Below, piece by piece: positions 1,273-42,950 of a DNA stretch of 42,950 bases (positions are counted from its first letter, which is position 1; each line of letters starts with the position of its first letter). The notes under the pieces were generated by a model. That model was not told the DNA's origin and did not search any database. It saw nothing but the letters and a program-made list of their open reading frames with translations. The stretch lies in IMG/VR virus record IMGVR_UViG_2870479586_000005; one strand, given 5' to 3'. The stretch comes from a virus (Duplodnaviria; Heunggongvirae; Uroviricota; Caudoviricetes). Both the position numbers and the translations under genes were made by a program.

Positions 1273-1432
1273 TAATTAAAAGGATTTCATAATGAGAATT
1301 AATTTTAGTAGTCGGAGAGGTATTAGTATTTCGGCGTCAAAAAAAATACCATCAGGTTGTTTTACATTTATGTTCGTAGTTTTTTTATTATTTTTATACT
1401 TGTTAAGTGCTCTGGTAGCGCTTGATTTTGTA

Positions 1433-1861
1433 TTAATCTAGCGAAGCTCCATAATATTCGAGCGTGAGTGAAAAGTCCTGCGATTTAGGTGTTCCGCCCA
1501 TCAAAAAGCTGTTTTGCGTTTCAGTTAGTTCTCGCAGCACCCAGTACCCTTTCACCTCCCCGGTCCCCAGCACTAGCTGCTGGGGTTCTCCCGTGTTCCC
1601 GAGCGCTCGCAAATCTGTCAACAGGCCGACGCCGCACCCGTCAAGAAATAAAGCGTTTATCTTTCCATCGATAGTAATTGTGGGGTTCGGTCGTCCGGTT
1701 ATCTGCAACGCGTCGTTTTTCCCGAATCGTGTTTGCTGAGCCCAGCGCCAGGCGTCACTACGTTGCAGTTTGTTGTACGCTACTGTTGATATAGCAAAAA
1801 TGAAATCACCCAGGCCGAGCATGATATCCTCAGCACCGTTTATTGCATCACTCATTGTCAC
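1433..1861 (-). CDS. phage tail protein U (gpU-like)
   Basis: 142-aa ORF; LQRSDAWRWA...FLDG...DFSLTL pattern recalls P2 gpU; immediately downstream of the tape measure. Confidence 0.75.
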   Translation of the reverse strand: MTMSDAINGAEDIMLGLGDFIFAISTVAYNKLQRSDAWRWAQQTRFGKNDALQITGRPNPTITIDGKINALFLDGCGVGLLTDLRALGNTGEPQQLVLGTGEVKGYWVLRELTETQNSFLMGGTPKSQDFSLTLEYYGASLD

Positions 1862-4428: not shown

Positions 4429-5930
4429 TCAGGCTGCTTCTTTAAAAAGGGAGGCCAGTGCTTCAACTGTATAGTCATTATTAATGCGGTACATTAACGT
4501 AATTGTTTGTGCCGGAGATTTCGGACCAAAATCAACATTAATATAAAGATTACCCGCAGCCAGGCTTTCTTTTGTATTCAGCTCACTGTCTAACCACGCA
4601 CGCCCTCCGTTAATCGCACCCTGCTCCTCTAATTTGTGCAGATATGCGTTTATCGACTCGACAACGTCTGTTCCGAGGTGCAGGTCTATCGGACGATCAA
4701 TAAAATCGGTCATCATTGCCCGGGCTATAGAATCCTCAATTACGTCAGCTGTTCGACGAACGCTCTCGAAAGACCATTGCGGGCTGAGGCTGCACAAATA
4801 GTTACCCCAGTGTCTGAACCCGTCATAGCGAATAATCGTGCTGACCTGGCTGGCATTCAGCAGGTTCGCTGTGCAGTTTGTCTCACCAATAATAAAATCG
4901 TCGACTTGTTCAAGCCCTGTAACTCCGTAGATATTCTGGTTCGATTTACTCCACCAGAATCCTTTTTCATTATCAATTCGGGCTCGTAAACCAGCAGCGA
5001 TAGCTGAATACGGACGAGATAACCCACTGACATCACTCGTAGAATAAACGCGAGGTCGCAACAACTCAGCGCGTCCGCCGAGTTTTTGCCTGCGATTCAC
5101 AACGTCTGCAGGGGTAGCAGCGCGCGGAGAGTCGATATAACACACTCCCCGGAGTTTATTTGCAACCACTTCAAGCTGAGCCGCTATTTCGTCTCGTGCG
5201 CTGTAATCCGGCGCTATAATAATTCGCGGGGTAACTTCGTTAATTTGCGCTGACGTCAAAAGCGAATTAATTCCGGCGATAACATTTTCGCTCATATCAG
5301 CGTCGTCGCTACTCTCTACAACGCGAACAACAACGATTAATGCATCAGTCTGATTTAAAATATCAGAAATAGCGGGGGGCAGAGTCCCGTATTTCCCGAG
5401 CAGGGCGGCTTTCTTCTGACTACCTGCAATTAATACAGGAGAATTAATCGGGAATGCGTCATCCGTTCCACCTGATAAATTTGTAGGTGGAAGACCAAAT
5501 ACTGTACCGGTTCCGGAATGCTCGCCACCAAAAGTTACATTAATCCACTCTCCGTCTGTTTTCCCCTCTCTATATTCCTGATTCTGATCATACATTTTGC
5601 CGGGGTCATTCCCGGCTCCGTAATCATCGTTAATTTTTTTGTTCCGTCGGGCAGCGTGCTATATCCTGGAGTGCAGGTTGCGCCCTCAACTGTCATATCT
5701 ACAATTTCAACAACCCATTTATTCCCGTCGCTGCCCGGTGATACAGTTGAAAACTCAACGAGATTATCAGCCAGCGATGAGCCCCACGTTAATGATGCTC
5801 TCGTAGCCTCCGCGACGTTCGTCGCAGTACCAACAATCCCAATCACGGAAATATCTACTGTGTTGATCTCTTTTGTGCCGTCGTCGTATTCGAGCGTGCG
5901 AATACCGTGCAAAAAATTAGTTACGCTCAT
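4429..5930 (-). CDS. contractile tail sheath protein (P2 FI-like), split across two frames at a T7/A7 run
   Basis: ORF 5535-5930 begins with a sheath-like N-terminus (MSVTNFLHGIRTLEYDDGTKEINTVDISVIGIVGTA); ORF 4429-5595 carries the rest (FPINSPVLIAG...IIRYDGFRHWGN...LYINVDF); frames join with one extra base in the run at 5634-5640. Confidence 0.75.
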
Positions 5931-32307: not shown

Positions 32308-32614
32308 GAAATCCTCCGCTCAAAATAAACATACTGATTCACCGCACCGATCGACATTTCGAGTTTTTCCGCGATATCCTGGCGATTAATACCCGACTGA
32401 TGTAATTCCCTTGCCAGCTCGATATCCTCCTGGCGGTATTTCACTGACTGGTGATAATTACCCGCAGATACATACAGATTTTCAACTCGCGCGCTTTTGT
32501 GCGTACCGCAGCACCGGTTCTTCCAATAAGCTGCCCTATACGTTCAACTGTCATGCTGCCCGCACATTGTTTGATGATTACGACTTCCGCACGCACCCAC
32601 CGTTTGTATTTCAT
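32304..32614 (-). pseudogene. HTH-containing small protein gene, apparently frameshifted
   Basis: ATG at 32614 opens a 57-codon frame (MKYKRWVRAEVVIIK...MTVERIGQLIGRTGAAVRTKAREL); a second frame continues to 32304 (...DIELARELHQSGINRQDIAEKLEMSIGAVNQYV); both halves look protein-like. Confidence 0.3.
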
Positions 32615-32847
32615 TGCTCCATCCCCCCTCTCCAGTAGTTCAGACGCTCTCTGAAAAATTCCCGGTACGTATCCGGCGTCATTCCGATTTGCTCAATCAC
32701 GCTTCCCCTCGGAATACGTTTCTCAAAGAGTTGGCGGATCAGCGTCGCCGCTCGCATGTCGTAGTGCTCTTTAAGCAGGTATTCCTGAGGCCATTTGGCG
32801 CGGTTGTGTGGTAAGCCGGGCGGCAGGTAATCTGATTGCCCTGCCAT
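32611..32847 (-). CDS. hypothetical protein
   Basis: 78-aa ORF with ATGA overlap to the downstream gene. Confidence 0.35.
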   Translation of the reverse strand: MAGQSDYLPPGLPHNRAKWPQEYLLKEHYDMRAATLIRQLFEKRIPRGSVIEQIGMTPDTYREFFRERLNYWRGGMEQ

Positions 32848-32848
32848 A

Positions 32849-33259
32849 TCACGTCCCTTTCTTTGCTATCGGAGTGATGGAACTCAGCAGCAGGCGACAG
32901 CGACCGGGCGCGCCAATGCGCTGTCCGGTTATCTTGTCGTAAGTTTCATGCGGTGAGGCACACCAGGTTGTCGCTGTTTCGTGGAGTTTCACTTGCCGCT
33001 CACCATTTCTGCGAATCGCGATCCCGATGTGCGTTTTACCCTTACATTTCACTGCTGGCGCTGCGGCTACGGATGCCTGACGGGCAGGCTGAGCTGGTGT
33101 TGAAAAATTGCCTGCTTTGGGTCTTGGTACAAAAACCGCACGAGTGCGCGCACGTGGCCCGGCGTTCATATTCCACAAAATGACGTCGAGATAGTTTTTA
33201 CCGTCGTCTATGTGTCCTTTGTCCGACGGGTACTCTAATTTGCCTGAAATGGTGGTCAT
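32849..33259 (-). CDS. hypothetical protein
   Basis: 136-aa ORF directly downstream of the helicase gene. Confidence 0.35.
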   Translation of the reverse strand: MTTISGKLEYPSDKGHIDDGKNYLDVILWNMNAGPRARTRAVFVPRPKAGNFSTPAQPARQASVAAAPAVKCKGKTHIGIAIRRNGERQVKLHETATTWCASPHETYDKITGQRIGAPGRCRLLLSSITPIAKKGT

Positions 33260-33297
33260 TGGTCTTTCCTCGGTTATTTCACGCTGGTCATGCGTGG

Positions 33298-34689
33298 TTA
33301 AAATGGGTCCGTATTAAAGTTTTTGTTTGAATACCGTTTTTCACGTTTTCTCGGTTGCTCTGCCTCCTTCTGGATGCGTAATTTTTCGCGTGCTACGTGT
33401 TGATCAACTGGCAGGAAATGCCCATTCCGGAATTCCTGATAAATAATTTCACCTGCCCCGCCAGAACGGTTTTTACCGATAATCACCTCGGCGATACCCT
33501 TTGCAGGTGAATCAGGTGTGTAAACTTCATCGCGGTACAAAAACAAAATGCTGTCAGCGTCCTGCTCAACACTGCCGGAATCGCGCAGGTCCGACATCAC
33601 CGGGCGACGCTGGCCAGCAGGTCGAGAATCCACCTGGCGGGAAAGCTGGCTAAGAGCAAAAACAGGGGTATGCAGACGCATGGCCATAGTCTTCATGTTG
33701 CGGGAGATATGCCCGACAGCGAGATCGTGGCGCTCGGCCTTCGGTTTTTTGATCAGGCCCATGTAATCAACACCAATCAACTTCAGGTGCGGATAACGGC
33801 GTTTATGAGTCTCTGCAATGGCGCGGATCTGCTCAATCGTCAAATCAGTGGCATCAACAATCCAGATATCGCGATCCTGCATGATTGCAAGCGCGGCGGT
33901 TAATCTGGTCAAATCCTCATCGTCCATTTCTTTTGGATTACGCAGACGCGACGTGGACATATTCCCAGCCCCGGCAACGGTACGTTCAACAATCTGCTGA
34001 GCGCCCATTTCCATGCTGAAAAACAGTGCGCCGCCGCCATCTGCGGTAACGCCATCGATAATCTTCAGGGTAAATTCCGTTTTCCCCATGCCTGGACGAC
34101 CGGCAACCACAACAAGGTCGGTCATGTTGATACCGCCCAGGGCGACATCCAGATCCTCGACTCCGGTTTTCAGCATCATTTCCTGCGCGTCGCCAGACAT
34201 CCGTTTATCAACGGTGTCAATGTAGAGCGGTAACAGCTCTTTGATGTGTACCGGCTGGACTGTGCCGGTAGCGGCGCTCATATCCAGCACCTGAGCAACA
34301 TGAGATTCAATAACCTCATCACGCTGACTCTGGTTTACAGCGTTACGGATACCATCCGCGCCAGATTGCAACAATGCCGCCATTTTGCGGCTCCGCCATG
34401 CCCGCACCATTTTCCCGGCATAGCCTTTCAGATTCGGTACCGTTGCCGGGATCCGGGATATTTGAGACAGATCCGCAAGGCTGGAACCGCCCAGCGCTTC
34501 GCTGATAAACAACATGTCGATCATGCCGTTCGCCAGTGCCTGCTTTTTGATTTCGCTGAAAGCGCGACGGTGAAACACGATGCTGAAGGCTTCCTCCGGA
34601 GTAGTGGCAATCACATCAAACGCGTCAGGCGTCGCGCCACCGTTAATCAGACCAGCGAGAACGATCGCTTCCAGTTCTTCTGGATTCAT
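33298..34689 (-). CDS. replicative DNA helicase (DnaB-like)
   Basis: 463-aa ORF; Walker A GRPGMGKT, Walker B-like IWIVD context, DnaB-type C-terminal motifs; follows the O-like gene. Confidence 0.85.
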   Translation of the reverse strand: MNPEELEAIVLAGLINGGATPDAFDVIATTPEEAFSIVFHRRAFSEIKKQALANGMIDMLFISEALGGSSLADLSQISRIPATVPNLKGYAGKMVRAWRSRKMAALLQSGADGIRNAVNQSQRDEVIESHVAQVLDMSAATGTVQPVHIKELLPLYIDTVDKRMSGDAQEMMLKTGVEDLDVALGGINMTDLVVVAGRPGMGKTEFTLKIIDGVTADGGGALFFSMEMGAQQIVERTVAGAGNMSTSRLRNPKEMDDEDLTRLTAALAIMQDRDIWIVDATDLTIEQIRAIAETHKRRYPHLKLIGVDYMGLIKKPKAERHDLAVGHISRNMKTMAMRLHTPVFALSQLSRQVDSRPAGQRRPVMSDLRDSGSVEQDADSILFLYRDEVYTPDSPAKGIAEVIIGKNRSGGAGEIIYQEFRNGHFLPVDQHVAREKLRIQKEAEQPRKREKRYSNKNFNTDPF

Positions 34690-35786
34690 AATGCCCCTTC
34701 CCTGGTTTTACGCAGTGTTTCTGGCTTCATCAGGTAATCAAACCCTGCCCGCCAGCCGGTGCGATATTCGCCGCCGAAATAGAAGTCTGGGGCGTTATCG
34801 CGGAATTTTTCGAAGTAGCCGATAAATGCGCCAAGAGTTTGCGTGCGCATATGTGCCAGCAGGCGCAGGATTGCCCGACGGCGGTCAGTATCAATTTCAG
34901 CTATAGGTAGCAGGTCGCCCAGAATCTCGTTGTAGCCCTTCACAACTTCAGCAGGGTCAACGGCAGCCTCAGCAGTGGCCCACGTCTCAGCGTCAGCCAG
35001 GTATCCGTCAAACCGGTTTACGCGGCAAATGTTCGCAGGTTTCGGAACGCTTCCGCTACGACGGCGCCATGTCGCAATAACCCAACGAATTACTAACTGA
35101 ATCTCAGCCACGCTGTAACCAGCGCGGGTGGTGGTGGCAGTTAGCAGCATGACAAACGGTTTAACGTCGCGGCAGCGGGTACCGACTTTCTCGTTGTAGT
35201 AGTTCAGAGCTTTTTGAGCGTCAGCGAGAATGATTTCCTCGCCCTCCCCCTTTTGGGGGTAAGGGGGATCTTTTATCTCTGTAGTACTCTCTGTTGTATT
35301 CTCTGTAGGAGATTGGGTCATTTTGACCTTAGCGCATGGGTCAACTTGACCTGATGCTTGGGTCACATTGACCTCTTCGATTGGGTCAACTTGACCTAAT
35401 CGATTGGCCACAGGGAATGTTGTCTCTTCAATCTTACATAACTGGGCATAATTGATTGAATACCACTTGGTTTTATCCCAGGCATCACTGTTAAAGTTCC
35501 CAGTAAGCAACACATTCAATTTTTCCAGATTGGCCAACACGCGTTTTATTGTCGACTCGCTCCAGAACGGGAATTGTTCTTGCCAGTCGGTCACACTGTT
35601 GTACACCCAGTGGCGATTTTCGAAGAAATTTTGAGACGAATTCAGCCAGTAGTGGATTTGCTGTAGAACGATGGCTTCATTCAACCCTATAGTGCATGCC
35701 AACGTGGGCAGGACCTGAAGGGGGTTTTCGTTAATCAGCAAACGACTCATACTCAGATCTCCAGAGCTTCGGCTATCTGACGACAA
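34686..35786 (-). CDS. replication initiation protein (lambda O-like) containing the origin iterons
   Basis: 366-aa ORF; four iterons lie inside the coding sequence (each translated as the GQVDP repeat), as in lambda O/ori; coupled to the helicase gene. Confidence 0.6.
   Translation of the reverse strand: MSSDSRSSGDLSMSRLLINENPLQVLPTLACTIGLNEAIVLQQIHYWLNSSQNFFENRHWVYNSVTDWQEQFPFWSESTIKRVLANLEKLNVLLTGNFNSDAWDKTKWYSINYAQLCKIEETTFPVANRLGQVDPIEEVNVTQASGQVDPCAKVKMTQSPTENTTESTTEIKDPPYPQKGEGEEIILADAQKALNYYNEKVGTRCRDVKPFVMLLTATTTRAGYSVAEIQLVIRWVIATWRRRSGSVPKPANICRVNRFDGYLADAETWATAEAAVDPAEVVKGYNEILGDLLPIAEIDTDRRRAILRLLAHMRTQTLGAFIGYFEKFRDNAPDFYFGGEYRTGWRAGFDYLMKPETLRKTREGAL
35331..35418. repeat. origin iterons (4 copies of an 18-19-bp palindromic unit)
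   Basis: TTGGGTCAACTTGACCT-like units, each an inverted repeat GGGTCA-N2-4-TGACC; adjacent 3x TCTCTGT(A/T)G direct repeat at 35276-35311. Confidence 0.7.
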
Positions 35787-35977
35787 CCGGCTTCATAGTC
35801 CGCATTGCTCAGCCCTTTGTCGCGCAACTCGACCTTCCTGGATTCATACTGCTCCCACACCGAAAGCGCGGCAGCCATACGCCCATCAAAAATAGGTTGG
35901 ATCTCTGCAACATGTGCCGGGCGCCCATTCAGGTGCCAGCCGTTACGCCAGGTAATGCGGTCAATATGTCTTAACAT
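35753..35977 (-). CDS. hypothetical protein
   Basis: 74-aa ORF between the YdaT-like and O-like genes. Confidence 0.3.
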   Translation of the reverse strand: MLRHIDRITWRNGWHLNGRPAHVAEIQPIFDGRMAAALSVWEQYESRKVELRDKGLSNADYEAGCRQIAEALEI

Positions 35978-36016
35978 CGGTCTTTCCTCGGTATAAGTTA
36001 AACGCTGGTCAGGCGC

Positions 36017-36493
36017 TCATGCATGGTGGCCTTGCGCAGTGCTTATCACTGCTCCTCGCGTCGCTACCAGCGCCGCTATTGCTTCGTCAATTTCCTGAAT
36101 AGTTAACTCTGGCGCGAAGTGGAGATGTACAGCGTTAATCGCTTCCACCCCTTCTTTTGCCGCCAGCGTTGCCAGCAAAACGGGATCGCCCGGCGACTCC
36201 AGACGCGCCCGCCGTTCTGCGGGTAGCACTGCTTTCATCACACTGGCCAGCACCTGAGTTTTTCGGCGCGCCGCCGTTGTCTCGCCACGTAACCAGCGAA
36301 AGATTTTCTGCCGGTTGTTGTTGATGGCTCTCCAGTCCACGTTGCCGTCCGTGTCCTCAAATTCATGTAGTCTCAACTCATCATTGCGTCCCTGACTGAA
36401 CCAGGCCCGGCAGATTTCAATCGTGACGAGTTCCTGCCCTGCCCTTGCCGCCCAGGTCAAAATCTCTTTTTGTAATTCCTCTTGGTTTTCCAT
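36017..36493 (-). CDS. YdaT-like regulator (CII-analogue position)
   Basis: 158-aa ORF; NNNRQKIFRWLRGETTAARRKTQVL recalls Rac YdaT (WLKGET region); second gene of the cro-side operon. Confidence 0.55.
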   Translation of the reverse strand: MENQEELQKEILTWAARAGQELVTIEICRAWFSQGRNDELRLHEFEDTDGNVDWRAINNNRQKIFRWLRGETTAARRKTQVLASVMKAVLPAERRARLESPGDPVLLATLAAKEGVEAINAVHLHFAPELTIQEIDEAIAALVATRGAVISTAQGHHA

Positions 36494-36552
36494 AGCGTCT
36501 CCTGTCGCTAAAAATTGATTACGCTTAATCAGATGTAATAAGCCGCCTTTTG

Positions 36553-36750
36553 CTAAGCTTTTTCATGTTTTGGAACATCGTAAAAAGTCGGGTCATATTT
36601 CAGTGCTCCATTAGTGATATGGTCGAGTCGAGCTGCTCGCTTTTCAGGAACTGTTGCCCCCCAACGAGTAACCGCCACTTGTGATATACCCAGCACCTTG
36701 GCTGTGGCTGTCTTTGAACCAAAAAAACTAATAACCGTCTCTGTTTTCAT
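36553..36750 (-). CDS. Cro/YdaS-like HTH regulator
   Basis: 65-aa ORF with an HTH (TATAKVLGISQVAVTRW); divergent from the repressor gene. Confidence 0.65.
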   Translation of the reverse strand: MKTETVISFFGSKTATAKVLGISQVAVTRWGATVPEKRAARLDHITNGALKYDPTFYDVPKHEKA

Positions 36751-36818
36751 AATTCCTCCGCGTAACTTTTGTTAGCAACATAAATACTAACGAAAGTTAT
36801 GTCAAGTTAACTTATATT
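36751..36818. promoter_or_regulatory. divergent promoter/operator region of the immunity switch
   Basis: 68-bp AT-rich spacer between divergent cro-like and repressor genes. Confidence 0.4.
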
Positions 36819-37232
36819 ATGAGGATGAAAAATTTGATGCTTAGCGACCGTTTATCTCAAAGACGCAAACAGCTTGGTCTAACCCAACAACAGCTTGCTG
36901 ATATGGTTGGAAGATCGAGTGTGAGCGTTTTTAAATGGGAAAGCGGACAAAATGAACCAAAGGGCCAGAACTTGTTGGCTTTGGCCAATGCACTCAAGTG
37001 TTCTGCCACATGGCTGCTTTTTGGTGACGAAGACCAGGCGCCAACTCCGGTAGACGAATTACCAACAGAGCTGGATTCACGTCAAAAAAGATTGTTAGAG
37101 TTATTTGATTCATTACCCGAGTCAGAAAAAGAAAAGCAACTAATTGAATTAGAAGATAAAGTTGAAAACTTTAATCGTTTATTTGAAGAGTTACTGGTTA
37201 CCAGAAAGAAACTAACCCCCACCAAAAAATAA
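36819..37232 (+). CDS. XRE-family HTH repressor (CI analogue lacking S24 peptidase domain)
   Basis: 137-aa ORF; HTH (LTQQQLADMVGRSSVSVFKWESG) then a coiled, acidic C-terminus; no Ser/Lys autoprotease motifs seen. Confidence 0.7.
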   Translation: MRMKNLMLSDRLSQRRKQLGLTQQQLADMVGRSSVSVFKWESGQNEPKGQNLLALANALKCSATWLLFGDEDQAPTPVDELPTELDSRQKRLLELFDSLPESEKEKQLIELEDKVENFNRLFEELLVTRKKLTPTKK

Positions 37233-37235
37233 AAT

Positions 37236-37270
37236 AAAGGCAATGTTTTCAATGCATTGCCTTTATTTTT
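37236..37270 (+). terminator. rho-independent terminator after the repressor gene
   Basis: AAAGGCAATG-9 nt loop-CATTGCCTTT followed by ATTTTT, starting 4 nt after the stop. Confidence 0.65.
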
Positions 37271-38178
37271 ACCCCAAATACTAACTTTTGTTATAAAACA
37301 TCTTGCACATAAAATTACCTTTAGTTATATTCATTCCATCAACAACGCTTACCCAGCGGCAGTTGTTCAGAAACACGTTCTGACAGCCGGAAAGACGGCA
37401 CCAAATTTTGCGCGTCGGCGCCAACACGGTGACAGAGGGAAAGACTTCACCGGCATATGGCACATGTGTCGAAGCGGTCTGGATGGAAGCGGAGCCTTAA
37501 CGCGTTGTCTCCATAGCAGGTAGCCGGAATGTGCAAGCCACAGCCAGGTATGAGCGATTGATTCACCATCAAGGCGATACGGTGTGACCACCAGGGAAGA
37601 GTCCTGGCTACAACACGAGAGCGCACTTCATCGACTCAACTTTGAGCTTTGTCGTTAAATTTTGAAATGGCGGAGTGCGCTCCCGGTTGTGGTGAACAGG
37701 TGTTTAACGGGAACTCCCTGCCCGTTACCCGGTTCGATTCCGGGCGCCCATCATCAATTTGCTGTGTTTAGTCTTTGCCCAGTCCGCACGATGGGCCATT
37801 TTTTCACACAGCCAGGTTTTATCGCTGTGCCTGAGTCCCCAACAGGAGAGGCCAAACCCGCAGCGTGACACCAGGGAAAGACCGGAGGAAGTACCACGCC
37901 TGACCAGCGTTGACCATGAGCCTGACCAGCTCAAAACAGGAAAGACCAGCCCTGTACGGTCGTAATGGAAACATAACGACGCCGGAAACGTAACCGGCAC
38001 CCTTTAGATAGCAAAAGACCCGCACAAGGCGGGCCAGTTACCCCGAACGGCGACCAAACCATTCGGATTTATCACAAGTGACCAAACTTGTGATGAGGAA
38101 AGACCAACGACACTGACGCTATGGAAGCTGATCAATATTCGCTGATCGGCTCTGAGTATACATTACCAAGGAGTCGCT

Positions 38179-38499
38179 ATGGAAGCGCGCACCATCCCAG
38201 TAACACTCTTTATTCATTATGCAACTTCAACTTTCAGCCACGAAAAGCTGCTTGTTGCGACGGTTGATATGTCAAAAAATTTTCCAGACAGGTACATCCT
38301 TCTGGAAAGCCGCGAAATTGAAATTACCGTCAACCAGCCCCAGCCAATCGACATCATCGGTTTACAGGTCGAGCAGCTGCATGAGCAAAAACAGAAAACA
38401 GCCGCCGACGCCCAACAGCGTATTGCTGCTATCGATGACGAAATCCAGCAGTTACTTTGCATCGAATACACGCCAGATACCGATGAAATCCCCTACTAA
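38179..38499 (+). CDS. hypothetical early-left protein
   Basis: 106-aa ORF with AAGGAG Shine-Dalgarno. Confidence 0.4.
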   Translation: MEARTIPVTLFIHYATSTFSHEKLLVATVDMSKNFPDRYILLESREIEITVNQPQPIDIIGLQVEQLHEQKQKTAADAQQRIAAIDDEIQQLLCIEYTPDTDEIPY

Positions 38500-38529
38500 A
38501 GACCACTGACCTGTAATGAGGAAAGACCA

Positions 38530-38859
38530 ATGACCATTTTTAACGGCTTGTTAGAAGCGAAAAAAGGCGCGCTCAAAAACGGTGCGATCCCGGCGCTGGC
38601 CATCGCCATCGACGCCCCTAACAAAAAAGTTGCCGAGAACATCATCATCGGCAAATTGTGGGAAGCCTACCCTGACCACGGCGACAACTATTTCAAACCT
38701 AAAATCTGGGAGGATGCCCCAGGCCAACCGCGCCCAGGCGTCGGTGAGTTTGATGAGACGTTTGCCACAGAACACAGTTTTGATGGCGAAAAATGGGTAG
38801 TTAACCCCCCGCTGATTCAGATAGCGGTTCAGCAGATATCGCACAGGTTAACGACCTGA
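38530..38859 (+). CDS. hypothetical early-left protein
   Basis: 109-aa ORF; ATG directly follows the repeated TAATGAGGAAAGACCA initiation module. Confidence 0.45.
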   Translation: MTIFNGLLEAKKGALKNGAIPALAIAIDAPNKKVAENIIIGKLWEAYPDHGDNYFKPKIWEDAPGQPRPGVGEFDETFATEHSFDGEKWVVNPPLIQIAVQQISHRLTT

Positions 38860-40745
38860 TGAAACTGCCTGCTCGTGAACGCTTCGCCGCCGTCCTGCTG
38901 TTCAGCCACGACGCCAACGAAGTCGACAGTGAATTGCTTGCGCAGACGCGTGAATACCTGGAGATGCTCGACAACAGTGATACTAACAGTGAGGATGAGG
39001 TTGACGCGTTTAACCGCATCGTCCTCGATGCCATGGTAGCGTGTAAGCCCATTGAGTACATGCATATTGCTGGATTGAATAATCTGGTACATGCAATTTT
39101 GGCAAGTTGCGATACCCAGGAACAAAACCCGACCAGTTGGACTATCTCCAAATTTATAAAAAAATGGGTAGAGAATCCCGGTAAACGCGATGAAATGCTG
39201 CCGGAGGTAAAACCACAAACAGCATCCGCACGTCCTTACCAACAGACTCACGCCACACTGGATCGTGAAATTGCCTGCGCCCTGTTACCTGTTGCCCCGG
39301 AAAAAATCACCCCCAGCATCCTGAAAGCGGCAGACGAAATAATCAGTCAGGACAGGGAAGATTTTAAACGCTGGTCAATGGCCTTGCGCACAACGGATCA
39401 GATCCTTGCCTATGACCGCGCATCAGTATTCGGTGTTATTCAGAGCGCCCCCGCAAAAGACACGTACCACTTCCCACAATCCCTGCGCAGTCACATCGAC
39501 AACTGGCTGCAAGCTAACGGGCAGCGTGATGCAAATGCTGTTGAAGAGAAGCCAAAGGAAGCAGCACCAAAGGATGATGTAAAAGTCACCAACCACGGCG
39601 GCGGACGATTCTCAATTGATGGGATGATGTCAGAAACATCCTCAAATCAGGGCGAAAAAAGCGAAGCAGCAAATGCTGGAGAACGTAGTTTGCAGCAGTT
39701 GCGTGAGCAGTTTGTCACGCCCCGCCATGTGTATGGCGTACCAGAAAATAACGCCGTATCACAGCGGGAATCTGTAACTGTTATCCTGGAAGAAGAGACT
39801 CCTCCACAAGAAAAACTTAGCGAGCAGGTAAAGGAGCCTGTGCAGAACGTTGACGCGCTGGTTGAGCGGATCCATACCGAAGAGCACCAGCGGCAGAATG
39901 CAATCTCAGCTATCGAAACGGAGTTAAATGACTCCAGTGATACGGATAACCTGGCATTGTGGAAGAACGTATTCAAAACCGATGAGCGTTTCACCAAAGC
40001 TTTCTCTCAGAATGGCGGCGGCACATCCATCAACGGTACTTATATAGCGATGAAAGCGACTCGCGAATTTGGGCCGTTTGGTATTGGCTGGGGTGTAGAG
40101 GTGGTGGAAGAGCGTTTTGATAAAGGCGCACCGATAGTTCGCAAAAAACAGGTTGGTGAAAAAATAGAATGGGATCTGATTCAAGACGGAGTTGGCGGGT
40201 ACCTATGTGAAATGCACCACACCATGAAAGTTAGAGTCTGGTACATATTGAATGGGGTGCGCGGTGAGTCCGAGGCTTACGGATGCACACCTTATATCTA
40301 CGACACTAAATACGGACCAACAAGCGACGGCGAAGCGCCGAAGAAATCCTGGACGGATGCTGTTAAGAAAGCGCTATCCCCTCTCGGATTCAGCGCCGAT
40401 ATTTTCATGGGCCTGTACGACAATCCGGAATACCGCCAGAGGAATAAAGCTGAGTTTGATATCAAGAATGCCAGCGAAAATGCGGAAGATGCTACCCGTC
40501 TGCGTAAGGAACTGGATGAGAAGCTTATCAACGTTGCCAATACGCTGGCCGCCGCGGTAACCGCCAACGAAGTAAACAAGGTATTTGGCCTCATCGCCCG
40601 CGAAGTGGATGTACACCGAAAAGCAGCAGAAGCCAAAGGCGATAAAGAATATTCATCGTATCTGGGATCGCGCCTGCGCCGTATCACCGACATCAAAACT
40701 GAACGCCTCGCCGCCCTCACCGCTGCACAGGAGCAAACCGCATGA
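38859..40745 (+). CDS. large early protein, possible single-strand annealing recombinase (Erf/Rad52-like C-terminal region)
   Basis: 628-aa ORF; C-terminal KKSWTDAVKKALSPLGFSADIFMGLYDNPEY loosely recalls the Erf-family conserved segment; upstream of a Gp157-like gene. Confidence 0.35.
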   Translation: MKLPARERFAAVLLFSHDANEVDSELLAQTREYLEMLDNSDTNSEDEVDAFNRIVLDAMVACKPIEYMHIAGLNNLVHAILASCDTQEQNPTSWTISKFIKKWVENPGKRDEMLPEVKPQTASARPYQQTHATLDREIACALLPVAPEKITPSILKAADEIISQDREDFKRWSMALRTTDQILAYDRASVFGVIQSAPAKDTYHFPQSLRSHIDNWLQANGQRDANAVEEKPKEAAPKDDVKVTNHGGGRFSIDGMMSETSSNQGEKSEAANAGERSLQQLREQFVTPRHVYGVPENNAVSQRESVTVILEEETPPQEKLSEQVKEPVQNVDALVERIHTEEHQRQNAISAIETELNDSSDTDNLALWKNVFKTDERFTKAFSQNGGGTSINGTYIAMKATREFGPFGIGWGVEVVEERFDKGAPIVRKKQVGEKIEWDLIQDGVGGYLCEMHHTMKVRVWYILNGVRGESEAYGCTPYIYDTKYGPTSDGEAPKKSWTDAVKKALSPLGFSADIFMGLYDNPEYRQRNKAEFDIKNASENAEDATRLRKELDEKLINVANTLAAAVTANEVNKVFGLIAREVDVHRKAAEAKGDKEYSSYLGSRLRRITDIKTERLAALTAAQEQTA

Positions 40746-41311
40746 GCACAGCTATCGCTATTGCAAAAGAATATGCCAGCCTGATTGACCTGCTGGAAAC
40801 CTCCGACGAACTGACGCCAGAGATGATCGCCGACACGCTTGAAGGTATGGAAGGAGAACTGGGAGACAAACTGGACGCCATGATGGTCATCTGCCGCAAT
40901 TTACAGGGCAATGCCAATACCTGCGCTGAAGAAATGTCTCGCCTGGCTACCCGTAAGACGTCCTTTGAAGGCAAGGAAAAAGCAATCCGAAAGCATATGC
41001 TCGCCTGCCTGCAAGCTGCTGGCCTGGATAAACTGAAAACCGCAAAAAACACATTTACTGATGCACAGGGGGCTATCCGGGTAATTATCGATAGCAAAGA
41101 TAAGATCCCGGATGAGTATGAAGGCGTGTCACTTGTTGATGTAGAAACGGTTATTACACCAAACAAGCGAGCCATTAAAGAAGTGATTGAATCTGCGGAG
41201 GCGGTTGCCGCCGAAATACTGGCGCGTGGAGAAACACCACCAGCCGAGTTATTAAACCCGGTACCAGGCGCACATCTGGAACGCGGCGAACGTTCACTGA
41301 GGGTACGCTAA
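40742..41311 (+). CDS. Gp157-like protein (recombination-associated family)
   Basis: 189-aa ORF coupled to the upstream gene; family assignment from recall. Confidence 0.4.
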   Translation: MSTAIAIAKEYASLIDLLETSDELTPEMIADTLEGMEGELGDKLDAMMVICRNLQGNANTCAEEMSRLATRKTSFEGKEKAIRKHMLACLQAAGLDKLKTAKNTFTDAQGAIRVIIDSKDKIPDEYEGVSLVDVETVITPNKRAIKEVIESAEAVAAEILARGETPPAELLNPVPGAHLERGERSLRVR

Positions 41312-41471
41312 TGCTTAAACTCACATTAAAGCGTGGTGACGCGGTTCACCTGGTACTTGCCGATGGAACCAACGGCATTATTGAAGCACGGAGCCGCTGC
41401 GAACTTGGGCTACACCTGCCAGAAAACATTAAGGTCACGCGGGAGAAATCGGCATTCCCCCACCAGAACTG
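41310..41471 (+). CDS. small hypothetical protein (53 aa)
   Basis: ATG overlapping the upstream stop (TAATG); MLKLTLKRGDAVHLVLADG... ; below the ORF-track cut-off. Confidence 0.25.
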
Positions 41472-41701
41472 ATTACGCCTAATCAGAAATAAAAACTCAC
41501 CATCGCTAGCATTGCGATTCACCAGTAACCGGAGGATCACAATGCTGCGATGGCAACCGGGAGCAACTCTGCTCTCCGCATTTGATATCAAAATTGGCCG
41601 ACTGTCGGCCAGCGTCAGGAAACAGGCTGTGACCGAGTCTGATATTGCCCGTGCCTGCAAGGCGGCAGATGACGCAATAAGCTACATAATGAGGAAAGAC
41701 C

Positions 41702-41965
41702 ATGAGAAGCGATCACGACATAATCACCAGAGAAGAAATGGTCGAGCTGACGGGAAGCCCACTTAAATCAAAGCAATGTGAGGCTCTTCGCCGGGCTGGA
41801 ATTTTCTTCATGGAAAGGGCTGACGGGCACCCAAAAACAACCTGGGGCCATTTCATGAACCCAATAAAATTTCGCAATTTACAGGAGGTGACGACGCGAA
41901 AAGATGATGAACCTGATTTTGGAGCAATATTTAATGGCCGGAAAGAGAAAGAACCCAGCAGATAA
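41702..41965 (+). CDS. DUF4224-like small protein (possible excision/directionality factor)
   Basis: 87-aa ORF immediately upstream of the integrase; ATG follows the repeated initiation module. Confidence 0.45.
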   Translation: MRSDHDIITREEMVELTGSPLKSKQCEALRRAGIFFMERADGHPKTTWGHFMNPIKFRNLQEVTTRKDDEPDFGAIFNGRKEKEPSR

Positions 41966-42950
41966 CTGGATGCCGCCTCGTGTTTACCAGGGCAAAGCGG
42001 CCTACGAATTCAGGAATAAAGATAACAAAGCGATACGCCTGTGCGCATTGGATGCGCCACGATCAGCCGTATGGCTGGCATATGAAAAAGCGGTCGGTGA
42101 CGAAAAAGAAAGAAATACTTTTCAGGCGCTCGCGGAACAATTCATGACCTCCCCTGATTTTATGGATTTGGCAGTCGAAACCAGGAAAGACTACACAAAA
42201 TATTCCGGAAAAGTTCTGCCTGTCTTCGGGAAGATCGACCCGGATAAAATCAAACCTGAACATATTCGGCGCTATATGGATCAACGCGGTTTATCAAGCC
42301 GAACTCAGGCAAACAGGGAAAAAAGCTTTATGTCCCGGGTATTCCGTTGGGGTTATGAGCGAGGTTATGTCCAGAGGAATCCTTGCCAGGGAGTTAAGCA
42401 GTTTAAAGAGACAGCACGCGAACGTTATATTACGGATGAAGAATATCAGGCCGTTTATGAAGTGTCTCCTGACGTCGTTCGCGTGGCAATGGAGATTGCC
42501 TACTTATGCGTGGCCAGACAGAGTGATGTACTTTCATTGCAGAAAGACCAGCTGTTCAATTCCGGGATCTACATTCGTCAGGGAAAAACCGGCGTTAAGC
42601 AAATCAAAGCCTGGTCGCCTCGTCTGCAGAAAGCGATAGCTCTGGCTCGTTCTCTGCCATTAAAAACGGGAATCAGTAGCCTGTTTGTGATTCATCAAAC
42701 TACCGGTGGCAAGTACACCCGTGATGGTTTTAACTCTCGTTGGCGTGATGTCAAAGCGGCAGCACAGGAAAAATATCCTCATCTGCAAATAGACTTCACA
42801 TTTCATGATCTGAAAGCAAAAGGTATCTCTGATCTGGAAGGCAGCCTGGAAGAGAAGCAAGCAATTTCCGGGCATAAGAACCCACGACAGACAGCTGCCT
42901 ATGACCGAAAAGTTAAAGTAGTGCCCGTAGTTGGTGGCCAGAGAAAATGA
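41904..42950 (+). CDS. tyrosine integrase (site-specific recombinase)
   Basis: 348-aa ORF ending at the window edge; C-terminal catalytic region FHDLKAKG...GHKNPRQTAAYDRK with His and Tyr; true start probably at 41934 or 41970. Confidence 0.85.
   Translation: MMNLILEQYLMAGKRKNPADNWMPPRVYQGKAAYEFRNKDNKAIRLCALDAPRSAVWLAYEKAVGDEKERNTFQALAEQFMTSPDFMDLAVETRKDYTKYSGKVLPVFGKIDPDKIKPEHIRRYMDQRGLSSRTQANREKSFMSRVFRWGYERGYVQRNPCQGVKQFKETARERYITDEEYQAVYEVSPDVVRVAMEIAYLCVARQSDVLSLQKDQLFNSGIYIRQGKTGVKQIKAWSPRLQKAIALARSLPLKTGISSLFVIHQTTGGKYTRDGFNSRWRDVKAAAQEKYPHLQIDFTFHDLKAKGISDLEGSLEEKQAISGHKNPRQTAAYDRKVKVVPVVGGQRK

Follow-up and report, generated by a model that had tools for sequence, protein, structure and literature searches.

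A repeated box at early-gene starts of an Escherichia coli prophage and a candidate antisense small RNA that may pair with it

The 42,950-nucleotide (nt) DNA analysed here (IMG/VR record IMGVR_UViG_2870479586_000005, Caudoviricetes; hereafter referred to as the window) is a temperate prophage of Escherichia coli, and its early region contains five copies of an 11-mer, GAGGAAAGACC, four of which directly precede the ATG of a gene. From sequence comparisons, we consider it rather likely that this box, GAGGAAAGACC(A), is the seed-match site of a trans-acting, phage-encoded antisense small RNA (sRNA) and that it overlaps the ribosome-binding site (RBS) of several early genes, which the sRNA probably shuts off together. 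The candidate sRNA is a predicted minus-strand RNA of about 137 nt, encoded opposite the only copy of the 11-mer that has no ATG beside it.

All five exact copies of the 11-mer were inside the 8.8-kb early region, four of them ending 0–1 nt before an ATG, in both of the divergent early operons (Table 1). The four ATGs are the starts annotated by PGAP in a near-identical genome. The GAGG of these boxes lies 7–8 nt from the ATG, and every copy is oriented away from the genetic switch, with early transcription. A preliminary description of this DNA had proposed a repeated translation-initiation module used by at least two genes. The three copies on which it relied do exist (ATGAGGAAAGACCA at 38093–38106 and 38516–38529; TAATGAGGAAAGACC at 38514–38528 and 41687–41701), and the box serves four genes in the window, the two minus-strand copies having been overlooked. 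AGGAAAGACC is the most repeated 10-mer of the window, and the 14-mer, with up to two mismatches allowed, matched five times against 0.25 expected. In the early region, the other 33 kb of the window and a 156-kb sample of the E. coli chromosome, the respective counts were 7, 0 and 2 for GGAAAGACC, 5, 0 and 0 for GAGGAAAGACC, and 2, 0 and 0 for TAATGAGGAAAGAC. The density of GGAAAGACC was 80 per 100 kb in the early region, zero in positions 1–33000 and 1.3 per 100 kb in the host sample. A comparable density in the host, named beforehand as the observation that would speak against the module, was not seen; neither the 11-mer nor the 14-mer occurred in the 156 kb.

As to the copy without an ATG, the element at 38069–38106 consists in related phages of a 9-bp hairpin with an invariant GACCAA loop (plus strand) and, 2–3 nt later, the invariant box, followed in most relatives by ACG and not by ATG. 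When the hairpin was read on the plus strand, 91.1% of the cells in the alignment paired and 8 of the 9 pairs were compensatory, with no G.U pair and 13 A.C or C.A mismatches. When it was read on the minus strand, 98.8% paired, the 13 mismatches turning into G.U pairs. Because the non-canonical pairs are G.U only in the minus sense, the hairpin is under selection as a minus-strand RNA. The preliminary description had read this copy as possibly a dead start or a scar of module exchange. Neither reading, nor that of a leader peptide, agrees with the relatives: 57 of the 83 distinct ones have no ATG there, and the open reading frames (ORFs) of the others are unconserved (4–47 amino acids, aa), while the hairpin followed by the box and ACG is the commoner state and pairs correctly only on the opposite strand.

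As judged from covariation, the third copy (38091–38106) is the DNA complement of a structured minus-strand RNA that runs from about 38148 to 38012, between the CI-like gene and the first gene of the pL operon. The window RNA was predicted to fold with −61.4 kcal/mol (z = −6.7). RNAalifold, applied to 19 diverse relatives, predicted a 5′ helix, an unpaired CUUUCCUC, two stem-loops (SL1 and SL2) and a terminator; 95.7% of the cells were paired, as compared with 37–51% in slid controls, and 20 of the 33 pairs were compensatory, many with G.U. The same order of minus-strand elements was found in 25 diverse relatives, including prophages of Serratia, Yersinia and Morganella: a −10 sequence, a gap of 24–34 nt, the anti-box GGUCUU(U/G)CCUC, SL1 (UUGGUC), SL2 (a loop with UUGGUC) and the terminator. 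The terminator stems covary (for instance GCCCAC-UUCG-GUGGGC or GGCCCGC...GCGGGCC) and are followed by 4–7 U. The −10 sequence stood 24–34 nt upstream of the anti-box in 23 of the 25 (TATACT in 18, TATAAT in 4 and TAAAAT in 1), with T1, A2 and T6 kept throughout; the window and its close relatives have a spacing of 49 nt, beyond this range, and their −10 was hence unscored. A conserved block, 38139–38204, contains the putative −10 and the 5′ helix.

The sRNA is apparently undescribed, being found neither in Rfam nor in the literature searched, where we also found no prior description of the motif or its complement; the genome paper of phage ZF40, which has the same layout, does not mention the repeat. 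An Rfam scan of 32500–42950 (E ≤ 1) gave no family match at the sRNA and only weak matches to RprA and STnc240 elsewhere, and on the sRNA strand of one relative (L004) only sub-threshold matches to Trp_leader, isrB and rsmX. Rfam includes a C4 antisense RNA family, and the scan gave no match of the candidate to its covariance model.

To rank possible pairing sites, we scanned the 20-nt seed GUCGUUGGUCUUUCCUCAUC against all 85,848 window positions on both strands (mean −7.8 kcal/mol, standard deviation 3.2); the seed alone was used because duplex prediction with the full-length sRNA was too noisy. The sRNA's own antisense site at 38087 (+) came first, with −37.4 kcal/mol. The next four places were taken by the four boxed start regions, the best trans sites in the window, with which the seed was predicted to pair over 11–19 nt: 38510 (+) at the exonuclease-like gene (box D; −32.5 kcal/mol, 19 nt, through the AUG with one G.U), 33271 (−) at the 136-aa gene (box A; −30.8), 41688 (+) at the excisionase-like gene (box E; −26.2) and 35989 (−) at the 74-aa gene (box B; −25.8). 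The best background site, in sixth place, had −22.7 kcal/mol, and a leader copy at 37926 (+) was eighth with −21.9. The ACG that follows the third copy is CGU when read in the sRNA, and a G.U pair still allows this triplet to pair with AUG.

The box varies at one position, the motif of the window family being GAGG(A/C)AAGACC, and this variation provides the strongest argument, from sequence, for action in trans. Phage ZF40 has seven copies of the C form (AGGCAAGACC; box GAGGCAAGACC) and none of the A form. Only the C form, in 3–4 copies each, is present in loci from Rouxiella, Yersinia and Morganella and in a ZF40-like locus, and at least 12 enterobacterial genomes together with 77 IMG/VR loci are purely A-type. 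There was no mixed genome; 578 targets agree with the type of the sRNA and none disagrees. The sRNA genes of the Yersinia and Morganella loci are themselves C-type (GGUCUUGCCUC) and match the A-to-C change of the targets. Neither A nor C at this position can pair with 16S rRNA, so that the variation is not accounted for by plain Shine-Dalgarno function.

The box is widespread in the phage family. The gapped pattern TGACCAGCGT-N5-30-GAGGAAAGACC matched 116 IMG/VR contigs, and in 117 related loci (1.19 Mb) GGAAAGACC occurred 725 times against 9 expected, raw counts that are biased in that many of the loci were retrieved via the motif itself. About 60% of these copies are followed within 0–3 nt by an ATG and head at least 10 protein families, in line with the earlier idea of an initiation-linked element common to unrelated genes; about 40% have no ATG. 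In an unbiased set of loci, retrieved via a 53-aa protein and not via the motif, the box was exact in 64 of the 66 distinct start regions, which belong to three gene families, and the two exceptions differed by one base each. The genes after the helicase gene vary between relatives and the cassette is constant. An exact-match search found the 15-mer in 66 IMG/VR contigs. About 14 of these are close relatives with two copies 3,175 nt apart; the remainder are mostly chance-like single matches in unrelated metagenome contigs, with a few singletons in the phage family. A gapped 19-base pattern was too permissive over genome contigs, where most of the 120 matches listed were chance matches in unrelated bacteria, and only enterobacterial loci with at least two copies were usable from that scan. 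Two cultured phages have the same layout, 'Stenotrophomonas' phage BUCT708 and Pectobacterium phage ZF40. Phage vB_SmeS_BUCT708 (OM816834.1) has the same early region and a 61-nt match of 100% identity to enterobacterial prophage cassettes; its stated host looks doubtful.

Many boxes across the family are preceded by a small hairpin. The stems covary (GCGC, ACGC/GCGU, GAGC, GGGC, GGUGU/GCACC) and contain G.U pairs in the mRNA sense. The loops are usually CUGACCA, with the variants GUGACCU and CAGACCA, but GACC, complementary to GGUC in the loops of the sRNA, is always retained. The pL leader also contains units of box and hairpin that lack a start, 2–5 of them per relative.

From these features we infer that the sRNA is transcribed and represses its targets, with kissing contacts between loops and a decoy role for the leader. 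In a lysogen, with pL repressed, the sRNA would be made, and its pairing over 11–19 nt, from the Shine-Dalgarno sequence to the AUG, would block ribosome entry on leaky mRNAs. The genes repressed together would be the exonuclease-like gene, the excisionase-like gene, the 74-aa gene after ydaT and the 136-aa gene after the helicase gene, the 11-mer doubling as the Shine-Dalgarno sequence and spacer of these four genes across both operons. The UUGGUC loops of the sRNA could contact the GACCA loops of the target hairpins, perhaps speeding recognition. Once pL is active, the sRNA would be counteracted by convergent transcription and by the complementary leader, which, with the full antisense site and its 2–5 start-less units, could titrate the sRNA as a decoy. 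We are evenly divided on the broader proposal that a widespread family of temperate Enterobacterales phages uses an undescribed sRNA mimicking the anti-Shine-Dalgarno sequence, with one 11-nt box, an early regulon in both operons and leader decoys that lift the block on induction; if so, 'start-associated sequences' elsewhere might also be sRNA seed-match boxes.

Several observations weigh against the sRNA, as does the retrieval bias of the raw counts. The −35 sequence of its putative promoter is weak, and a consensus promoter scan called no sRNA promoter. The high rank of the four start regions in the seed scan is due partly to the 11-mer that they share. Four bases of the seed, GGUC, are predicted to be paired within the 5′ helix, which would have to open to some extent, and the loop–loop complementarity extends over just 4–5 nt. 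As to the shared variant, the sRNA occurs together with its targets in only two C-type loci, the change from A to C may have arisen only once in evolution, and ZF40 has no clear copy of the sRNA architecture.

The same copies could be a cis-acting, lineage-typical strong RBS cassette, composed of GAGG, an A-rich spacer and an insulating hairpin and kept uniform by gene swaps or conversion between copies; an antisense RNA, if made, would then act only in cis on the pL leader. The distance of 7–8 nt between GAGG and ATG is ideal for such a cassette, the same cassette stands before differing genes after the helicase gene, and the boxes occupy non-overlapping gene junctions at which breakpoints cluster. 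Within 25 nt of three of the copies we counted 69, 50 and 22 homology breakpoints between related phages, against 6.6 expected, and an additional 94 fell at 36000–36019, the far end of the fourth copy's cassette. A role of the boxes as module junctions, along the lines of the preliminary description, is compatible with these clusters and may hold as a consequence of the arrangement of sRNA and boxes or in parallel with it. We nevertheless judge the cassette explanation unlikely. Shine-Dalgarno function leaves unexplained why 64 of 66 11-mers are exact, including seven spacer bases, and the cassette accounts neither for the single A or C variant in each genome, which extends to the non-initiating copy, nor for the complementary loops. 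The repeats, of 11–40 nt, are in our judgement too short for frequent homologous conversion.

Binding of the box on the mRNA by a protein seems improbable, whether by CsrA of the host or by a small protein of the phage (the 53-aa one, for instance), with the leader copies as a CsrB-like sponge. The 53-aa beta-protein (41311–41472) weakly resembles CsrA, with 13.6 bits in Pfam against a cutoff of 27 and an hhalign probability of 2%; all its CsrA scores are below the Pfam threshold, and fold searches, including Foldseek, returned no CsrA. The A-to-C change removes the GGA triplet and therefore counts against CsrA: the C-type box GAGGCAAGACC has no GGA, which is thus not present in every site, and host CsrA was rejected on this ground. 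A bound protein would also leave unexplained the box complement within a structured antisense RNA. We give still less credence to the copies as transcription signals in DNA or nascent RNA, whether as oriented, operator-like elongation blocks resembling the stoperators of mycobacteriophage L5 or as nut-like antitermination sites (a hairpin with a linear box) for passing the leader terminator. It is true that all copies are oriented along early transcription, that a terminator separates pL from the early-left genes and that the hairpin loops are purine-rich and somewhat boxB-like. Against this, the box is unlike the TAAC-N-GTTA operators, its fixed distance of 0–3 nt to the ATG indicates translation, the leader contains no N-like arginine-rich ORF and, by eye, no similarity to HK022 putL, and its hairpin is under selection on the opposite, antisense strand.

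Compared with known immunity RNAs, the candidate has their general features, namely a structured RNA beside the immunity region and complementarity to RBS-overlapping sites on other phage mRNAs. The c4 RNA of phages P1 and P7 carries short complements to phage mRNA sites, one of which overlaps a ribosome-binding site. In the cited account, c4 (immI) is a small structured RNA of the immunity region that acts as a second line behind the protein repressor (PMC8198154, which cites Citron and Schuster 1990). The candidate is similar as a small structured RNA predicted beside an immunity gene, with a complement to RBS-overlapping sites. However, c4 is processed from the transcript of its own targets and serves one operon (icd-ant), whereas the candidate sRNA is antisense to the pL leader, has an apparent −10 and terminator of its own and would address at least four start regions in two divergent operons. 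The CI RNA of satellite phage P4 (seqB with seqA and seqC) is an immunity RNA that pairs with repeated boxes on the element's own early transcripts. It resembles the candidate as one small RNA with repeated complementary boxes on such transcripts, but it causes premature transcription termination at two sites, whereas the position of the window boxes at the Shine-Dalgarno sequence and start suggests a block of translation. We found no homology to c4 or the P4 CI RNA. Lambda OOP and P22 sar are short antisense transcripts of the immunity or early region with intrinsic terminators, and they act only on the overlapping transcript; unlike them, the candidate sRNA has identical boxes elsewhere in the genome, which imply action in trans. 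Lambda nut sites (boxA and boxB with N) differ in that selection maintains the hairpin of the leader on the antisense strand and the leader has no conserved ORF, and L5 stoperators in that the box is unlike the TAAC-N-GTTA operators and has no copy in the 33 kb outside the early region. HK022 put was rejected: putL was unlike the start of the pL leader by eye, no alignment having been run, and the box and loop motifs were absent on its strand in a 10-kb HK022 stretch.

A close analogue of the box is the start-associated sequence (SAS) of Cluster K mycobacteriophages. This asymmetric motif, about 13 bp long, includes a Shine-Dalgarno sequence and is located a few bp upstream of the ATG in many non-structural genes (PMC3203893). 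SAS copies share one orientation, mostly follow larger intergenic gaps, are rare in the host, head unrelated gene families and often have an upstream inverted repeat; their function is unexplained (PMC3203893). The box matches this signature in being asymmetric, Shine-Dalgarno-containing, near starts, in a single orientation and rare in the host. It differs in sequence from the SAS consensus GGGATAGGAGCCC, and the 17-bp ESAS inverted repeats and the hosts differ too; the ESAS repeats show no covariation at the RNA level, in contrast to the hairpins that precede the boxes (4–9 bp, GACC loops). The box is an analogue of SAS/ESAS and not a member. For the box, a complementary sRNA gene can be identified, which offers a testable explanation.

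If the sRNA acts in this way, it would add an RNA layer of immunity or timing control over recombination, excision and replication-region genes via one shared box. Of 5,426 complete E. coli genomes, 548 carry the region 36500–42950, ST131 included, and there are related phages in Serratia, Yersinia, Morganella and Pectobacterium. According to the model there should be an RNA of 110–140 nt, four specified targets and a natural compensatory A/C pair, and the start-associated sequences of mycobacteriophages, long unexplained, would gain a possible mechanism. The box and sRNA could also serve as a compact, orthogonal multi-gene translational switch.

Table 1. Boxes, candidate sRNA and early-region features of the window
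Feature	Position	Strand	Description
Box copy A	33261–33271	(−)	1 nt before ATG 33259 of 136-aa gene (phrog_5148), downstream of helicase gene
Hairpin upstream of box A	33296–33280	(−)	CACGC-AUGACCA-GCGUG
Box copy B	35979–35989	(−)	1 nt before ATG 35977 of 74-aa gene (phrog_2465), downstream of CII-like YdaT gene
Hairpin upstream of box B	36019–35999	(−)	loop CUGACCA
Third box copy	38095–38105	(+)	exact GAGGAAAGACC, no ATG
Box copy D	38518–38528	(+)	1 nt before ATG 38530 of exonuclease-like gene (phrog_2489)
Box copy E	41691–41701	(+)	abuts ATG 41702 of DUF4224 excisionase-like gene; within phrog_27062 coding sequence (41543–41766)
Start-less leader units	37866–37950	(+)	GGAAAGACC at 37875–37883 and 37939–37947; CUGACCA-loop hairpins at 37896–37910 and 37918–37932; possible decoys, on pL read-through RNA
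Putative sRNA −10, TATACT	38155–38160	(−)	between box and Shine-Dalgarno sequence of first pL gene
Candidate antisense sRNA	38012–38148	(−)	about 137 nt; fold, covariation and terminator
sRNA 5′ helix	38147–38102	(−)
sRNA anti-box GGUCUUUCCUC	38105–38095	(−)	UUUCCUC predicted unpaired
sRNA SL1	38094–38071	(−)	loop UUGGUC 38085–38080
sRNA SL2	38066–38043	(−)	loop UUGGUC 38057–38052
sRNA terminator stem	38035–38017	(−)	then U run 38016–38013; called on minus strand
Cro-like gene	36553–36750	(−)	part of genetic switch
CI-like repressor gene	36819–37232	(+)	part of genetic switch
TAAC-N-GTTA operators			both flanks of CI-like gene
pL-like promoter	about 37288–37331
Intrinsic terminator in leader	37777–37804		between pL and early-left genes
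pR-side operon		(−)	cro, CII-like ydaT, 74-aa gene, O-like initiator, DnaB helicase, 136-aa gene
pL-side operon		(+)	leader of about 850 nt, 106-aa gene (start 38179), 738-aa exonuclease-like gene (phrog_2489)
pL-side operon, remainder		(+)	Gam-like Gp157 gene, 53-aa gene, phrog_27062 ORF, DUF4224 excisionase-like gene, integrase

The neighbours of the prophage region are a tRNA-Leu/Cys/Gly cluster and pgsA-uvrC, and its divergent pL-like and pR-like operons surround the switch (Table 1). The first plus-strand gene with a box had been described as a 109-aa gene. Its start at the box was borne out, while the gene itself proved to be the 5′ fragment of the 738-aa exonuclease-like gene, which is frameshifted in the window: a run of seven C, as in a 98.7%-identical genome, is reduced to six at 38805–38810, yielding ORFs of 109 and 628 aa. 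The C6 run is due either to a genuine frameshift or to a sequencing error in the homopolymer. The combination of a stop codon with a Shine-Dalgarno sequence, read from TAATGAGG, did not hold, as the TAA is not used as a stop (the upstream stop is at 38497–38499), and the TAA at 41687 is read through in another frame by the phrog_27062 ORF; TAAT is restricted to close E. coli relatives. This ORF (E = 5e-33) is conserved, extends about 64 nt past the start of the excisionase-like gene, translates across box copy E as ...IMRKDHE and is unannotated by PGAP in the near-identical genome.

The pL leader had no convincing ORF in a scan of its approximately 850 nt. Its first 120–175 nt from pL form a conserved unit that ends at the intrinsic terminator (37337–37806 (+) in the window, and compact in two relatives, at 5274–5444 (−) of L004 and 1384–1505 (+) of L207). 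The 3′ part of this unit (AAUUGCUGUGUGUAGUCUUUGCCC, a hairpin and a U run) aligns with the host sRNA RprA, with an Rfam score of 37–38 bits against a gathering score of 70 and E = 0.002 in a search limited to 231 nt. The unit may be a phage RprA-like sRNA or a leader, with the early-left genes beyond its terminator. A complementary sequence within this RprA-like leader was rejected as the trans partner of the box, as it showed no covariation with the A or C type on inspection. Relative to compact relatives, the window leader has an insertion of about 310 nt (37446–37755). It contains GGTTCGATTCCGGGCGCCCATCA, which resembles a tRNA T-arm and acceptor 3′ end (about 37726–37745); ARAGORN found no tRNA at the leader, despite the T-arm-like GGTTCGATTCCGGG at about 37730.

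Two further leader hairpins, 37386–37399 and 37435–37448 (+), have an invariant, G-C-closed hexaloop GAAAGA, with UGACA before each, and stems that covary among relatives (GCCG, GUCCG, GUCUG, AUUCG, CCGG). They are a separate element, because ZF40 keeps GAAAGA though its boxes turned C-type. In the O-like initiator gene, two tandem 45-nt units with GGGTCA...TTGACC repeats (35313–35402) are probably origin iterons.

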